64,000 nt of DNA from Octopus vulgaris (Eukaryota), in the NCBI GenBank assembly GCA_951406725.2, contig OX597822.1:44454001-44518000 (forward strand). The letters run 5' to 3'. Position numbers and translations under genes: made by a program. This document shows positions 3,398 to 61,030 of the stretch, piece after piece. The stretch's first letter is position 1. Each line of letters opens with the position of its first letter. The notes beneath the pieces are model-generated. The model did no database searches, had not been told where the DNA came from, and saw only the letters and a program-made list of their open reading frames with translations.

Positions 3398-3438
<41 letters not shown>

Positions 3439-3739
3439 CTCTCTGTCCCACCGTCTCTCTGTTTATCGGTCTGATACATCCTGGATTTTCCGCTGTTGTA
3501 GGGTTGCGGTGAGAATTGCACAATAATGGTGTGTACACTGGAACAATTCGACTCAAAGCTAAGTACCTAAAGTATGTTATATTCTACCAATCGGAGCTCA
3601 TTTACGAGAGAAAGAGATGAGTCCACGAGTCCTAATGACTAGAACATTTCACTACGCGTCCATAAGTTACTGGTTATGTTGCGTATGATTCTGTGTCAGA
3701 GAGTGAGAGAGGGCGAGAGATAAAGAGTGTATGTATGTA

Positions 3740-3878
<139 letters not shown>

Positions 3879-4573
3879 AGCAGCTAGATATTAGAAAAAA
3901 AGTCACAGAACCGAATCTCAAACTGCGTGAATAATTAAAACAAGAAAAATACACAAAAATATGCAACCGAAAAGCCGACAAATGAAATCATAATACAAAT
4001 AGCGAATTAGCAAATGATTCGATGGAAAACATAAAACAAACCACCATAAAAAATAACGGAACTACATCGGAAACAATGCAACAAAAACAACAGCCACAGA
4101 GGTGCCAAAAGAGAAAAAACCATAAGACAAAAGCAACCTAGGAAAATATATGGCAATGCAAACACTGAAAACGATAACCGCTCACACGAATGTTTATAAA
4201 ACGGACTTGAAAAGAAGGTAAAATGGTTCTGACGATCGCTGTTGTGTGAAACTTTAGTCGCGAGAAGAAATTCGATTTCAATATATTATATTTGTACGTG
4301 TGCGTGTATTTCTGTGTGTGAGTGTGTTGTTGTTGTGTGTATGTGTTGGTGAGTTGTCTGTGGGTGTGTATGTGTACAGTGAGAGAGGAGAGGGAAACTG
4401 AGAGAGAACCATAAATACATACACGCATACATAAAGTATGCTTGCATATTTACACACACACACATATATGTATGTATGTGTGTGCATGCATATATATATA
4501 TCCATGTATGCATACACACATATAACTGTATATTCATAGAACTTTGCATACATATGTATGAACATATACACAT

Positions 4574-13270: not shown

Positions 13271-14243
13271 CAATTCATTATTGTGACTAGCGATGGTCGA
13301 AAGTATTTTTAGTATTATATCTATACTATCATTGCCATATGACCCAGAGTAAGGAAATTATGTGCAGTAAACTCCACGAATAAGCTCTGACATTCTACCT
13401 TCTAAACGGTGAATATGAAAGAGTTATAATATATGTGCGAAACGTTGTCATTTTCGGGTCGCGGCCTCAAAGGTACTTTAATAAAATAATAATTGATTAC
13501 ATCAATATTAAATGGATTTTTTCATGGTTTAAATTTCAAAAAATGATTAAAAGTTTCCAAATCTTACACTCATATTTAATTTTGTATGAAACCAATCTTT
13601 CAAGTAATTTTCAATAAAATAATTTCAATTTTCTTCTTACAAAATATCTATATTTGGTCACATTATTAAATACCAATTTCAGTTTATTTCTTTCAAATTA
13701 CGTTTATCGTGAACGCACGTGTATTCTGTAGCATATGAATTAATAGTTAAATGAATGAAGATATATATGTGTGTGTGTGTGTGTGTATACATATATGTGT
13801 GTGTGTATGTATGTATATAATTATGTAGATTTATTTATTATTAAAGGTAGTGAGAATGAGCACCTACAAGCTAGAAATAGACATCAAATGACTTTAAAGG
13901 CACATCATTCTTTTACCCTCCATGTTGTTCTGAAGTCATTTGATGTCCATTTCTGGCGTATAGGTGCTGTTTCTCACTACCATTAAGTATGAATATATCT
14001 ACATAATTTATATCTATATTAATTCGTACCTATATGGTTTTTATTACATGCTGGCCACTGATAAGATCGTTATTTTTATTTCATCCTTAATCGTGTATAA
14101 ACACACACATGGACGCACGTACACACAAACATATGTATGTATGTATATATACATATATAATATATATACACACAAAAATATATATGTATATGCTTATCTC
14201 TATATACATAGGATATAGATAGATACGAATGTGTATATATGTA

Positions 14244-32982: not shown

Positions 32983-33077
32983 TTCATATATATATATATT
33001 TATATACCGGAGTAAACACATAAATGTGAAACAAGGTGGAAAAAAGAGTACTCAAATACCAGTGGTAGAGTAATATG

Positions 33078-33230
33078 CTTTATTTTAAGCAGCAGAAAAT
33101 TCAACAAAATCTGTTACTCTGAGTTTCTCGTTGCCGTTCATCAGACAGTTTTTGAAAAACTGTCTGATGAACGGCAACGAGAAACTCAGAGTAACAGATT
33201 TTGTTGAATTTTCTGCTGCTTAAAATAAAG
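33078..33230. repeat. Perfect palindrome (76-bp arms, 1-nt centre at 33154) in an element inserted in (TA)n
   Basis: The arms are exact reverse complements. The left side extends unpaired to about 33007, and (TA)n lies on both flanks. Confidence 0.95.
33160..33197 (+). ncRNA. Type I hammerhead ribozyme; mirror copy on the minus strand at 33111-33148
   Basis: ctgt-CTGATGA-a-cg(GCAA)cg-a-GAAA-ctc(a)gag-TA^acag. The core is canonical, stem II has a GNRA loop, and stem III has a 1-nt loop. Confidence 0.85.
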
Positions 33231-34233
33231 TATATATTTATATATATATATATATATATATGTTGTGTGTGTGTGTGTGTGTGTGTGTGAATACATGCAT
33301 ACATATATACACGTTGTATTTGTAGCAAAAAGACGTTGTTCTCAAGAATGAAGAGTTTAAAAGATAAAAGTGCAACATCGGGTGATATTATGCGGAATAG
33401 GGAGAGATTAGGAACTTGTGCGACAGATGGTGCTATAAGTGCGCATGCGCAATTGTTTCGAAAGATCGTGTATCTTTTGTGTGAGTCACTTTGTATGTAT
33501 GTGCGTGTGTATGTATGTATATATGTGTGTATGTATGTATATATGTGTGCATGTATGTATATATGTGTGTGTATGTATGTATATGCATGTGTGTGTATAT
33601 AGTATGTATGTGCATATGTGCGTATGTGTATGTATGTATGTTTGTAAGCGTGTGTGTCTGAATGTATGTATATATGTATTATGTGTTTATGTACGTATGC
33701 ATTATGTACTCGTGTATGTATGTGTGTGTATGCATGTATATATGTATGTATGCATGTGTATGTATGTCTGTGTGTATGTGCGTATGTATGTGTGTATGTA
33801 TGTATGTAAGCGTTTGTGTCTGTATGCATGCATGTATGTATGCATGTATATACGCGTGTATGTATGTGTGTGTATGTATGTGCGCTGGTGTACATGATTA
33901 CCTGTTCGTATCTGTGATTGTGTGCCATGGCTTCAAATTTATATATTTCTGTGCGTTAGTGCGTGCATCTGTGCGTGCGTGCATGTATGTGTGCATTTGA
34001 GTATGTGTGTGCGATTTTGTGTGTGTACGCGTGTGTGTGTGTGTGTGTGGTGCATGTACATCTAAATCCGTGTGGTCGGGTGTATTACCGTATCCTTGAC
34101 TATTGTCCCATCATTGTGTTTGCTCTCGTGTGTAAGTGTCAAGATGGAGCATGTCCATGTATTCGTGTGATTGTGTATTGGTGTGTATACTTGATTGGCG
34201 TTGTGAGTGCATGAGAGAGTTTTGCGTGTGCGC

Positions 34234-34755: not shown

Positions 34756-35998
34756 CAAGGTACGTAAGGTATTTAAGGACATAACTTTGTTGGGGGTCAT
34801 TGCCGCATTTTTTGCTAACTCTGTTTAATCTTTGTTTCAGAAAATAATAATTGCAGACCTTCAGCTTACTCAAGAAATGGAGAGGCATGTTGTTATTGTG
34901 ATTATAAATGCTGAACATAGCGATTTAGAAATATTTTGATTTTTAAACGTTACCATATTTTTGTCTACAAATTTTGTAAGGAGATAGGGAGTGAAGATGG
35001 AGACATATTACCAGTATGAAAGCCTAAAAAGCATTCTGAATGCTCTGAAGTCATCAGAACACCTTAATTTACCCAGCAAGTTCAACAGACCATTGATTAC
35101 AATCCCAGAAAGTCCATGAGGTCAATTGCAAAAGATCTCCATGAAAGGAAAAGTCAAAGATGTTGTCTACGGAGACATCAGAAATAAGCCTTATGTGATG
35201 AGGAAAGGTCAATTTGTCAGAAAAAGTAAATCACCACATCAGATCTAAAAGGCTCTTAAACAAACTGCAAAATCCAGCAGAAGATTTTTTTGGGGTTTTC
35301 TCAAACGAGTAAAACTTCGATCAAGATCAAAAACTTAACAGAAGAAATGACAGATGGTTATGTGCAGACCCTTCTGAAGTTACAAGTGTTATGCATACAA
35401 AGTTTCCTGCAACTGTCATGGTCTTAGGGATTGTCAGCAATGAAGGACATGTGATGCTTCCTTACTTCTTTCCACAAGGTCTTAGAGTTCACTCTGTCGC
35501 CTACATTGAGGTCCTGGAAACAAATGTTAAGCCCTGGATAGATAGTGTATGCAATGGAAGGCCATATGTGTTTCGGTAAGACTCTGTACTATAACATATG
35601 GCTCTAGTAACACAGAAATGGATGGCTGAAAATTTTCATGATCACATAACCCCTAACATTTGGCCTCCTAATTCCCCAGATCTCAATCCACTGGACTATT
35701 ACATGTGGAGCGCTTTTGAGAGAGAGGTCAATGAACACGCCCATAAAACCAATGATTCTTTGAAAGCTGCCATTGTCAGAGTAATGTCCAAAATGAACCA
35801 GGACCACTTGATTCGAGCATGTAGATGATTTAGATCTCATATAGAAGCAGTTGTTGAAGCTGAGAGTAGCTTTATTGAATAACATTATAGAAAAGAAGGT
35901 TTATTTTTATCCACACAATTTTTTAATAAATAGTTTTCTGTTATTATATGTGTTTTTTTATAAACATAAATCTGTCCTTAAATTTCTTACCAACCCTA
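34756..35998 (+). mobile_element. Decayed DD37D (maT-type) Tc1/mariner transposon
   Basis: Imperfect TIRs (caaggtacgtaaggtatttaaggaca and tgtccttaaatttcttaccaacccta) with TA flanks. The transposase remnant reads ...NRRNDRWL...KFPATVMVLGIVSNEG...GRPYVFR*DS...WPPNSPDLNPLDYY, with 37 residues between the 2nd and 3rd D. It contains stops and frameshifts. Confidence 0.9.
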
Positions 35999-37329: not shown

Positions 37330-37877
37330 CGTGTGTGTGTATACAAAAATGTAAATACATCTATATATATATGGTGGTTATCTACTCCTTATGCAGAGTT
37401 TGGCAACCTCCTGTAGCTACACATTAGAACCATCATAGCATCGGATGAGACGTTTTAAACCAGATAACGATTTGATAAGACACCCACCTAGATTGCATAT
37501 CTGATTCAGACTACCTAGAGTTGCAGTTAAGTTCTGAACTTCGTGGATCTTAAAATGTCTTTTGAGGTCTCCGTCAGATTTGCAAACCTTCTGGCATGCA
37601 TTGCATTGAAAGGTCAGCACAGACATACAGGCAGAATTGTATATATATGCATACACACAGAGACACACACTAGTACACACAACCACATACATATGTACGT
37701 ATATATATATATATATATATATATAAATGTATGTATAACAGGATACAGGATACACGGTGGTATAATATATCTAGAACTCTCTGGAAGTTCAGCGTTTTGT
37801 CGAATTGCGTCTATTTTCTATGAAACACTGTGTAGCAGACATGTTCTTTGGTTCGTATCTTTTCTACAGACATCCAC

Positions 37878-44847: not shown

Positions 44848-45399
44848 CGGTGTACGTACACCCTTCTGCTCACCTTATAGTAGGTATGTATCTAAATTTT
44901 GTACGCCTCTTACTTCATCTTTTATTCCCCACTTCCATTTTTCTTCCTTTACCTCTCTCCCTCTCTCCCCCTTCTTGGCCTGTCTTTCTTCAACTCCCAC
45001 TATTTCCCACTCGTTTATCTCCCCTGCTCCTTTCCCTTTGTCTCTGATTTTTTTCTAATCCTCTAATCACGCTGTCCCCTTCCCATTTCTCCTCTTTCTA
45101 CGTGGCCGGTGTCCGACCAGCTATGATCATCTTTTCTTGGCCTGACTGCCGACCGCCAACACTTCTTATGTCCATCTCCTATATTCCTGCCTTTAGGCTT
45201 TCACTTCATACAGGCCAGCTCAATTTGAATCGTTCTCAGTCAAAAGACGCCTGTTGTTATTTCTTGTTGTATTCGTAATTGTGTAGCAAGTTCTCCTTTT
45301 TTTTTTGCTTTACAGCGTATCATCTGACCCCATAACCTTTTGGCACATGGCCTTTCTGCCAAGTGGCCTCTCTCAGAAGTCATGTTGTCAACAGGTTTT

Positions 45400-45460: not shown

Positions 45461-45556
45461 ATAGACCGGCCTTATCTATCTTTTCATATATATATATTTC
45501 TATCTCTCTCTCTCTCTCTCTCTCTGTATATATATATATATATATATATATTAATA

Positions 45557-45977
45557 AAAAGAATTCCAACCTTGTCTGATTTTCACGTTTTATTTACAAT
45601 CTTATAATGATATATTATAAGATAATATATTATAATTGAATAAAATAAAATGAAATAGTAGAATGTTAAATATTCATTCTGATTGAACTAGTACTTTCAT
45701 GCATTGAATTCTGCAATCTTCGGGTTCATGTAGTAGTGTTGACAGTCATGCTTCACAATTTTTGACTGTCAAAAATTGTGAAGCATGACTGTCAACACTA
45801 CTACATGAACCCGAAGATTGCAGAATTCAATGCATGAAAGTACTAGTTCAATCAGAATGAATATTTAACATTCTACTATTTCATTTTATTTTATTCAATT
45901 ATAATATATTATCTTATAATATATCATTATAAGATTGTAAATAAAACGTGAAAATCAGACAAGGTTGGAATTCTTTT
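45557..45977. repeat. Perfect palindrome (~210-bp arms, 1-nt centre at 45767) flanked by (TA)n
   Basis: The arms are reverse complementary around ...tttttgac-t-gtcaaaaa... The match extends a few more bp after a 1-nt indel. Confidence 0.95.
45806..45850 (+). ncRNA. Type I HHR with U4C core; mirror copy on the minus strand at 45684-45728
   Basis: tgaac-CCGAAGA-t-tgca(gaattcaa)tgca-t-GAAA-gtac-TA^gttca. Stem III is the palindrome AGTACT. Confidence 0.7.
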
Positions 45978-46021
45978 ATTAATATATTCTTCTATACACA
46001 ATCACACACACCCACACACCC

Positions 46022-46052
<31 letters not shown>

Positions 46053-46373
46053 AGAAATATGGTTCATTAACTACAAAATACAAATATCCACTCTACCACA
46101 CTTATAACTCTTTATAACTTATTTCCCAACCTTATTTCGGCAAATGTGCTAAGCACTGATGCTGATTATAGCTTAATCAATAAGCGTAGGAGTGAGGTAA
46201 ATGCAGTAAAAATAGGTTGGGAGTCAGTGGAGCCCCATTTAAGCGTCTTTTCAGAAATTGAACCACCTTACGCTACTCCCTGGGAGTTCATGGTATGAAA
46301 TTCATTGTCCTTGAACATCACTCAAAAATCTCTCTCTCCCTCACTCTCTCTCCCACTCTCTCTCTCTCACACA

Positions 46374-51553: not shown

Positions 51554-51651
51554 ATATGTATGTATATATTATAGAGATGTACTTGCATAGCAAGTGATCT
51601 GATCTGAGATCGTGTGTTGGAACGAAAAAAATTGCAGCGTGGAAGGTGTTT

Positions 51652-51871
51652 ATAAGCCATTTAAGAAACACACAAAAACCGTTAGATTCACTTCAACATT
51701 TAAATTTAATTTGCCAAAATATTTTCGTCGCTTTGAGACACTGACAAAATTCCGCGCTGCATTTTGTCAGTGAACAGGTCGCAGTTTCAAAGCGACGAAA
51801 ATGTTTTGGCAAATCAAATTTAAATGTTGAATTGAATATAACGGTTTTTGCGTGTTTCTTAAATGGCTTAT
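51652..51871. repeat. Imperfect long inverted repeat nested in the (TA)n of a SINE
   Basis: Arms at about 51652-51750 and 51761-51871 have a 10-nt spacer and several mismatches. The left arm lacks about 13 nt covering the ribozyme core. Confidence 0.9.
51763..51813 (+). ncRNA. Type I HHR motif with G3:C8 swapped core
   Basis: tttgtca-GTGAACA-g-gtcgc(agtttcaaa)gcgac-GAAA-atgt-TT^tggcaaa, with a 7-bp stem I and a 5-bp stem II. The left arm preserves the palindromic stem III AATATT. Confidence 0.7.
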
Positions 51872-52306
51872 GATCACCGCCCATGGTGCAATTGTATATA
51901 TATATACGTGCGTGGTGGGTGGTACTCCCGCCATCGCTTGACAGCTGATGTTCGTTCGTTTAAGTCCCTGAAACCTAGGCATGCAAAGAAAAGGCCCTGT
52001 GGTCGATTCGTTCGACTATAGGCGGTGCTTCAGTGTGGCTTCAGTCAAATGACTGAAACAAAAAAATTTAAAAATACGTACACACACACACATAAATATA
52101 TATAATAAAAATATGTTACAGACGAAAATAGAAACTACACGGGCAATTTTAAGGGGAAAGTAAGAAGAAAAATAAGCGAAAGTGCACATTGGAAATCAAA
52201 AAAAGTAAAGGCTTTTTATGAAAAGTAATGATATATATATATACAATTAGATGAATTGAGGTAGGAATAAAAGTAATAAAAGTCATTATTGTGAATTGTT
52301 AAAGAG

Positions 52307-57240: not shown

Positions 57241-57275
<35 letters not shown>

Positions 57276-57277
<2 letters not shown>

Positions 57278-57691
57278 GAGAAAGAAGCAACAAGAATGGA
57301 TTGGTTTTTAGTACAATTGTTTCATACAAAGACAGGCTTTATTACAAGTTACAAAAATTGCAGCAGATAAAAGTGTCCCGTACTCATCAGCTAAAATACA
57401 TTTGAGTTCTCTAGACATCTTAGTGGGTGAGGTTATACTCATGAGATATTGGAGATAGTTCCAATATCTTGGAAAACTGTTTACAACCTATATCTGCCTC
57501 TAATGGAACTATCTCCAATATCTCATGAGTATAACCTCACCCACTAAGATGTCTAGAGAACTCAAATGTATTTTAGCTGATGAGTACGGGACACTTTTAT
57601 CTGCTGCAATTTTTGCAACTTGTAATAAAGCCTGTCTTTGTATGAAACAATTGTACTAAAAACCAATCCATTCTTGTTGCTTCTTTCTCGT
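57276..57691. repeat. Near-perfect inverted repeat (188-bp arms, 40-bp spacer) in an element inserted in (TA)n
   Basis: Arms are 57276-57463 and 57504-57691, with one mismatch seen. The right side continues unpaired to (TA)n at about 57810. Confidence 0.95.
57571..57661 (+). ncRNA. Type I HHR with extended stem II; mirror copy on the minus strand at 57306-57396
   Basis: ttttag-CTGATGA-gtacgggaca...tgtctttgtat-GAAA-caattg-TA^ctaaaa. The core is canonical and stem III is the palindrome ACAATTGT. Confidence 0.85.
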
Positions 57692-57809
57692 TTATAATCA
57701 CCCCACATTACTGTATGGATAACACCATATAGTTTTTCTGGTGCATCTAAGTTAAGTACCACATTCAAGTAAATTCATTGGAAGTTACTTGAATCTTAAT
57801 TGCTTTGAT

Positions 57810-59639: not shown

Positions 59640-61030
59640 ACGATATATTGAACAAGTGTTCGATAAAGTAAACTTACTTTATTTGATCATTGGAAAATTT
59701 AATATGGTGACCTCAAAAATAATTTGATGATATGGAATGCGGGACGCTATATATGGTATGATATTCTGTTCTTGTGTTCTTTGATCTAAGTTGGTTATAG
59801 GTATTTGTTGTGATTCTCTACTTCGGGGCCTGCATTCTTTGTTTTTTGAATAGAAACCCTTTGAGTTCTGTGATTGTGACATCATCTACAATAACAACAA
59901 CAACAACAGTACAAAATATGATGGCTTGATACTATTAGATATTAACCTTGTATACGCTGAATGGCATGTGTTAATATTCAGCTACTGTTGTGTTTCTATG
60001 TCTTTATAATATTTATTTGTTGTGATCTTAGTATCATTTTTGTCTACCAATATATCAAAATGACCATTTTGTTTTGTTCTTGGTGAACTTTGGAGCTGGG
60101 TGTAGAATGTTGATCAGGACGCCAAATTCTTCCAAAATAACTGTTGCTTTTTTCCAAATTTTTTTCCAGACAATCGTCAAAATATCTTTTACGTGCGCCC
60201 TCTATTGCCTAAAATCAGCACCACAGATTTTCTCTACTTTCGGTAAATATTTTCTTCCAAGAATCCCATTACCGATTTTGCATATACGGGAGCAAACGTG
60301 GTTCCCACAGCCGTGCCTCTAATTTGATAATTATTTTTCCCCTTGGAAAAATAAAGTGTTAATCAAAAGGAAAATGATGACAGCGACTAATATAAAATCT
60401 ATGGAGAATCAACAGGAAATCAGCTCTCTATATTTATCGAGGGAATATTTGAATGAAATTATTCCGATAATTTGTCGAATAATTTTGTAGATCAGAATTA
60501 TTAATTTGATTACAAAAATGTAACCAAAAACGAATTCGTTTATCTTGTTTTGGGTAGATAAAACATAAAATTAATAACATCCCAAATGAAACTCATTAAA
60601 TGGGTGCACAGTGAGTTATGGTTCGGCCTTGTTGGCGCAGCTATGATAAGTCTAAGCTCTTGATTCTTTAGATGTAATAATTAGATGTAATAATTGGTTG
60701 CAATAATTAGATGTAATATTTTAGTTTTCAATACTTTGTTCCTTTACTACACTTTGTGTTAACTTTGATTTGTGTAATTTTGATACACTATAAAATTTGC
60801 TGGAGTTTGATTAAAAATTGGCAATACCATCACTATCATTAGTGGTGAGATATGTTGTTTCGAAACCAGCCTACAGAGCCTCTTCATAATGTGATAATCT
60901 GTATTTGTATGTATTTAGCAGTAAAATGTTGTAGCATTCAAATGATCTTCGGCTAAAGCCCTATAATATTTAGAATTCGAGCAAAAACTTGTATTAGAGT
61001 TTTAGAGACGTCCAAGTTCAGATTTATGTG
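59640..61030 (-). pseudogene. Decayed Penelope-like element reverse transcriptase
   Basis: Manual minus-strand translation across frameshifts gives YQIRGTAVGTTFAPVYAKSVMGFLEENIY (60329-60243), KRYFDDC (about 60190-60170), IWKKATVILEEFGVLINILHPAPKFT, FDILVDKNDTKITTNKYYKDIETQQ*LNINTCH, and QIPITNLDQRTQEQNIIPYIASR. The motif order matches PLE RT (GxAMGxxxAP, YxDD, thumb YxKxTxxxQYL..SCH). The 5' limit is approximate. Confidence 0.8.

Follow-up and report, generated by a model that had tools for sequence, protein, structure and literature searches.

The palindrome at 45557-45977 of the window (the whole stretch of DNA that was analysed, 64 kb in length) is very probably a dead-end insertion of a Penelope-like element (PLE), in which the hammerhead-bearing end of the element is present as two short copies, placed head to head in (TA)n. 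Its layout is that of the known head-to-head pLTR junction of PLEs, not a new class. The parent itself is most likely a PLE, an assignment that we base on non-coding features. The stub lacks an ORF and as a unit would not be mobile.

The perfect arms, 45557-45766 and 45768-45977, are 210 nt long, complementary at 210 of 210 positions and separated by a 1-nt centre, just as a preliminary description of this DNA had reported, and they form the longest perfect inverted repeat in the 64-kb window. If one homopolymer indel is allowed the palindrome extends to 45546-45987 and 220 of its 221 columns are identical, the sole difference between the arms being the length of that homopolymer (5 A on the left versus 4 T on the right). 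The palindrome is flanked by (TA)n on both sides and a tail intervenes on the right only (Table 1). The insertion is therefore better placed at about 45552-46021, a size of ~470 bp, than at the ~420 bp (45545..45990) first given, which overlooked the 34-nt one-sided tail. The earlier statement that the tails point out into (TA)n likewise holds for the left arm, which abuts (TA)n, and fails for the right, where the unmirrored 34 nt precede (AT)14. No stem-loop fold is predicted for the 71-nt stretch around the tail (z +1.15). A target-site duplication is unreadable within the (TA)n target, and there is no empty allele among the joints listed for contigs of four public runs. No second copy of the arm was found in the window, which is microsatellite-rich, animal-type DNA (197 tandem-repeat rows, no N).

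Table 1 Features of the palindromic insertion and of the other palindromes in the window
Feature	Position	Strand	Basis or remark
(TA)n tract	45527..45551	.	left remnant of likely target; last 6 nt fit the element end too
Left copy of element end, no tail	45546..45769	- (sense)	inverted-repeat comparison; X1 loose ends behind 45769
Hammerhead, mirror copy, core start 45723	45684..45728	-	descriptor scan
Axis, central T at 45767	45767..45769	.	2-nt overlap of the copies (45768-45769)
Right copy of element end, pLTR-like	45768..45987	+ (sense)	match to 3,937-nt X8 contig
Type I minimal hammerhead motif	45806..45850	+	stem I 45806-45810/45846-45850, core CCGAAGA 45811-45817, GAAA 45836-45839
One-sided tail, 34 nt	45988..46021	+	28/34 bases A or C; same letters on other copies' loose ends
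(AT)14 tract	46022..46049	.	right remnant of likely target
Palindrome	13814-14012		arm identity 69/81 columns, 38-nt centre, no hammerhead motif
Palindrome	33073-33235		arm identity 80/81, 1-nt centre, canonical CUGAUGA core 10 nt from axis
Palindrome	51630-51893		arm identity 109/134, G3-C8 swapped core on one arm
Palindrome	57271-57696		arm identity 193/196, 34-nt centre, canonical CUGAUGA core
Hammerhead cores of palindrome 57271-57696	57577 and 57390	+ and -	stem II region 60 nt long

Arms that are 100% identical over 210 nt and turn on a single nucleotide raise the question whether a single PLE end was mirrored by an artefact of assembly or of library fold-back, and among the contigs listed for the four public runs none spans the whole locus or is shown to cross the axis. 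We consider such an artefact highly unlikely. The mirror ends at the element's own end and the flanks differ between the two sides; the flanks at 45033-45159 and 46058-46169 are matched by single-copy contigs of run X1 with 0 differences; contigs of three runs, each from a different study, contain an inverted junction of the same family; and the arms of the sibling palindromes have diverged to different degrees.

The family to which the arm belongs is visible in public sequencing runs. Part of the stretch is contained in 20 of the 24 runs listed, and four runs from four studies (X1, X2, X3 and X8, the last a putative RNA run) were compared, all as contigs. Over the arms the summed contig depth is 0.9-4.2 x 10^5 in X1 and X2, where a single contig reaches 30-60, and 0.6-4.6 x 10^4 in X3, where it reaches 4-16; this sum is not a copy number, yet it lies orders of magnitude above single copy. 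The palindrome arm is the end of a very high-copy repeat family of roughly 3.9 kb. Record 32 of X8, a contig of 3,937 nt, contains 45768-45992 at its positions 3414-3639 with 0 substitutions and 1 gap, and that single gap makes the contig equal to the left arm. In this contig 3,413 nt of non-mirror sequence precede the axis, the hammerhead sits ~3,450 nt from the start, and the sequence extends 298 nt past 45992. Because the arm has no substitutions relative to this contig we take the palindrome to be young, in agreement with the preliminary description, which had held it to be either very young or tolerated; that long sibling palindromes persist in the window fits the second part of that statement.

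Copies that leave the mirror were examined through 15 joints out of 33 and through 24 loose ends out of 685, and the following figures apply to these. Twelve X1 contigs depart from the mirror at 45769 into letters similar to the X8 upstream sequence. The parent is matched by the left copy up to 45769 and by the right copy from 45768, an overlap of 2 nt. In the left copy the fit to the long element goes on for three bases more than in the right, and the central base therefore belongs to the left copy. Tail letters follow on loose ends at 45972/45977 in 7 contigs of X1, 21 of X2 and 18 of X3, and 22 X1 contigs run straight into (TA)n without a tail. Since some copies of the family have the tail and others lack it, it is an optional part of the element. 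One junction has a different centre, joining 45728 to 45784 with 18 letters between; it has single-copy depth in X1 and X3 and is mirrored in X2. An X2 joint of 45771 to 45807 was set aside as ambiguous because of an internal 9-nt repeat. The arm's AT-rich stretch, 45860-45940, varies in length and sequence among family copies, as seen in loose ends before 45940 and 45898. Outside the insertion, the flanks at 45030-45300 and 46125-46315 are diverged multi-copy repeats, with summed depths of up to 9 x 10^4 and 2.8 x 10^4.

These observations bear on the possibility that the palindrome is a self-propagating non-autonomous element, of which the whole 470-bp unit is copied with a fixed centre, either in a MITE-like manner or via hammerhead-cut RNA of both strands. 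All four hammerhead-bearing elements of the window are palindromes, with none solo or tandem, and the summed depth shows no fall toward the axis in X1 and X2 (it does fall in X3), both of which would suit such a unit. However, in the X8 contig and in the 12 X1 contigs among the loose ends listed, family copies pass the axis into non-mirror sequence, and another copy, among the joints listed, has a different centre. The one-sided tail, the run-through copies and the other centre, among the rows listed, depart from the fixed internal structure and symmetric ends of a MITE. Furthermore, a transcript of the whole palindrome is predicted to form a single hairpin of -339 kcal/mol that buries the hammerhead motif. 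Propagation as a palindromic unit is therefore very unlikely.

The ribozyme motif is as the preliminary description had it, with a CCGAAGA core and a palindromic stem III (AGTACT) about 40 nt from the centre: the distance from the axis is 39 nt to stem I and 44 nt to the core, and in both arms the sense strand points away from the axis. The claim of a hammerhead in each arm needs some rewording, in that a motif is indeed present on each strand and is one motif seen on both strands. At 45806, stem I has 5 bp and stem II has 4 bp closed by a U-U mismatch, and the cut is predicted to fall after A45845. All elements of the core C3-U4-G5-A6-N7-G8-A9 and of GAAA...UH are found except U4, which is replaced by C (C4, position 45812). 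Judged from its letters, the 45806 motif is a hammerhead core variant. A strict descriptor gave six matches in the 64-kb window, all inside three palindromes, and none in 100 block-wise dinucleotide shuffles, and a wider one gave seven matches, all seven inside four of the five palindromes and all reading outward, against a shuffle mean of 0.07; both descriptors were tuned after the palindromes had been inspected by eye. Earlier, looser scans each had one extra match outside the palindromes (at 4229 and at 59660). Rfam returned no match at the gathering score and no hammerhead family among 30 weak matches. As these weak matches are mostly to microRNA models that fit any hairpin or (TA)n, we did not accept the locus as a microRNA. 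When the hammerhead region was searched for as an exact pattern, there were 0 matches in metagenome contigs, 0 in genome contigs and 0 in viral contigs.

As a monomer the hammerhead is predicted to form stems I and II at -6.1 kcal/mol (z -0.10), no more stable than shuffles, and a dimer co-fold gives a 6-bp intermolecular stem III at -18.6 kcal/mol. The dimer form has been described for PLE hammerheads (PMC4209133). A transcript through the stub would be expected from folding predictions to form the 210-bp hairpin rather than a ribozyme, and since the two motifs lie on opposite strands no dimer would be able to form in cis. A 22-codon frame leads from the axis to a stop inside the hammerhead and U4C would be a Leu/Pro change there; being so short, the frame was set aside. 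Downstream of the 45806 hammerhead no open frame is longer than about 25 codons.

Several features described for PLEs recur at this locus. PLEs carry an inverted 5'-truncated copy at the 5' end and a 30-40 bp tail at one end, and have (TA)n targets (Craig et al. 2021, PMC8557442). Their pLTRs measure ~200 bp, with an overlap where the inverted copies meet, and inverted repeats in head-to-head order, palindromic where they join, have been read as self-priming (Arkhipova et al. 2013, PMC3846280). In the family studied here the hammerhead lies within a pLTR-like terminal repeat, close to the 3' end of a unit of 3-4 kb; the inverted, 5'-truncated copy is head to head with its partner, so that the sense strands diverge, and the parent continues upstream of the axis; and there is a tail at one end and an AT-rich/(TA)n target. 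The stub shares with the insertion units of endonuclease-positive PLEs in PMC3846280 and PMC8557442 their head-to-head polarity, junction overlap, (TA)n target and 3-4 kb parent. Its arms of about 220 nt compare with 193-218 bp for the pLTRs of A. vaga PLEs, and its 34-nt tail, on the right side only, falls within the 30-40 bp of the one-end PLE tail. The stub differs from these units in having only two ends, with no ORF between them and no readable target-site duplication, and its overlap is 2 nt as opposed to 15 bp in Pen2a_Av. Further background is found in PMC6765202, PMC8969392 and PMC13282606.

The hammerhead points in the same direction. Minimal type I hammerheads with a palindromic stem III occur in PLEs, and opposite-strand minimal hammerheads 100-700 bp apart have been seen in Schistosoma (Cervera and de la Pena 2014, PMC4209133). 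Like the PLE motifs of that study, the 45806 motif has a 5-bp stem I, a short stem II, a 6-nt palindromic stem III, an A at the cleavage position and a predicted dimer fold, with stems I, II and the dimeric III all obtained as predicted folds; the closest layout is that of the Marsupenaeus japonicus entry in Fig. S3 of PMC4209133. The U-U closing pair of stem II (10.1-11.1) is atypical, as PLE minimal hammerheads typically have a G10.1-C11.1 pair and an extra base. U10.1-U11.1 is known to be tolerated in hammerheads (PMC3088659). The atypical U-U pair, and the fact that PLE identity rests on non-coding features, leave some room for a stub of the same kind derived from another parent, namely a LINE, a DNA transposon or a hammerhead-bearing retrozyme array. 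PLEs encode a telomerase-related reverse transcriptase, some also a GIY-YIG endonuclease, and have the partial tandem order pLTR-ORF-pLTR; no reverse transcriptase or GIY-YIG match to Pfam was found in the 53 short frames of the window. Nonetheless, the 34-nt one-sided tail, the head-to-head polarity, the palindromic stem III and the parent length all fit PLEs. Non-LTR retrozymes are tandem direct repeats without an ORF, each with a hammerhead (bioRxiv 10.64898/2026.07.22.740005), whereas the copies here are inverted and no tandem unit was found at the locus. A parent other than a PLE is thus highly unlikely.

How might a PLE give rise to such a stub? We propose that the protein of the element would nick the (TA)n target on both strands and use each nick to prime reverse transcription. 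Synthesis of one cDNA would begin at an inner start site, producing the left end without a tail, and that of the other 34 nt further out, producing the right end with its tail; both would end ~220 nt upstream, no more than 2 nt apart. The left cDNA would then anneal with its 3' end to the other cDNA by the 2-nt microhomology (or fold back on itself) and copy it, so that the mirror would be built at insertion and the + strand would correspond to the left cDNA followed by a copy of the right one. We favour the switch onto the second cDNA over fold-back because a hairpin made of a 2-bp stem and a 1-nt loop is improbable. As the tail is absent from the left copy, a second RNA-templated start is needed in either case. 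The proposal agrees with work on the Poseidon element PAc, in which both target strands are nicked and extended and two reverse-transcription start sites in AC-rich RNA delimit the tail (Frangieh et al. 2024, PMC11167929). PAc, from Anolis carolinensis, resembles the stub in its AT-rich target, in the extension of both strands and in the two AC-rich start sites that bound the tail; it differs in that its ORF begins inside the hammerhead, whereas no long frame follows the 45806 hammerhead. No account of inverted copies was found in the excerpts of PMC11167929.

It is possible, though somewhat doubtful, that the axis marks the 5' end of the RNA, and that the arms are short run-off ('strong-stop') cDNAs of both nicked strands joined head to head. 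Priming at the tail site, close to the transcript start, would then yield short cDNAs. If true, this would explain the near-equal arms, the position of the hammerhead always near the centre, and the inverted pLTRs of PLEs generally. An initiator-like CAGTC lies on the axis (- strand, 45768-45764), and 32 nt upstream an X1 loose end has a TATA-like hexamer, at the weakly supported far end of the consensus. The pair of CAGTC and TATA-like motif occurs at 57 of 91,460 unmasked positions, the motifs having been chosen after being seen, and by eye no such motif is present at the axes of the sibling palindromes. In the other junction listed (45728 to 45784), one arm seems to start within about 2 nt of the axis site. 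Against the run-off reading, depth in X3 declines toward the axis, and the D. virilis promoter is TATA-less (PMC2377424). The term 'strong-stop' was not found in the Penelope, inverted or pseudo-LTR literature, among the matches listed.

The C4 core was probably inherited from a parent subfamily. T at 45812 accounts for 68%, 34% and 83% of the summed contig depth in X1, X2 and X3, or 70%, 37% and 77% when pooled with the mirror site; C accounts for 17-66%, and the long X8 contig carries C4. Cores with C4 and cores with U4 are both common. C4 is therefore a variant shared by subfamily copies and not a mark of the 45557-45977 locus. It is absent from all 56 motifs listed in PMC4209133 Fig. S3. 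The same change is known from a natural viroid hammerhead, in which U4C reportedly gives considerably lower activity in vitro that is sufficient in vivo (cited in Perreault et al. 2011, PMC3088659); the 45806 case is in a genomic retroelement family. Cleavage by the C4 core is predicted to be poor, which may be tolerable to an element of this type, and hammerhead mutants of PAc still insert in vitro (PMC11167929).

Four further palindromes are present in the window, and three of them have the layout of the 45557-45977 palindrome. As noted in the preliminary description, the further palindromes are unrelated in sequence to the 45557-45977 palindrome, with which they share only (TA)n ends and chance matches of 10-15 nt, and yet the layout recurs: four of the five palindromes carry a hammerhead motif that reads outward from the axis. 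In all four of these one arm lies no more than 5 nt from (TA)n, where 8.7% of positions are so placed, and on the other side 34-113 unmirrored bases precede the next (TA)n. The unmirrored extension was shown to be element-derived for the 45557-45977 palindrome only. The 33073-33235 palindrome has a 2-bp stem II, and to its left are 73 unmirrored bases. From the range of arm identities (Table 1) it is seen that such palindromes persist and decay. The palindrome at 13814-14012 is older, and MITE-like or decayed.

One arm of 51630-51893 has a hammerhead-like motif (51763-51810, +) in which the 3-8 pair is swapped, with the core GTGAACA at 51770, a 7-bp stem I and a 5-bp stem II. In the left arm ~12 nt of the core are gone, but G3 is kept. 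This G3-C8 core comes from one arm of an old copy, and does not occur in the 56 motifs that Fig. S3 of PMC4209133 lists. The term 'G3-C8' was not found in the hammerhead literature, among the matches listed. C4 or G3-C8 cores may already be described in the work of Lunse et al. on PLE hammerhead variants.

As a structure the stub is ordinary PLE debris, and its usefulness is that it preserves a clean trace of an insertion reaction that has yet to be explained in its later steps. Genome-wide counts of centres, overlaps and tails could distinguish fold-back from twin priming, and random truncation from run-off at the RNA start. The spread of U4C through a large young subfamily would be natural evidence on whether PLE hammerheads need to cleave. 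Elsewhere in the window, the 53 frames searched against Pfam include a weak DDE_3 transposase fragment at 35595-35825 (+; E 1.4e-4) and a C2H2 finger fragment at 37420-37770 (-), which are likely remnants of other transposons.
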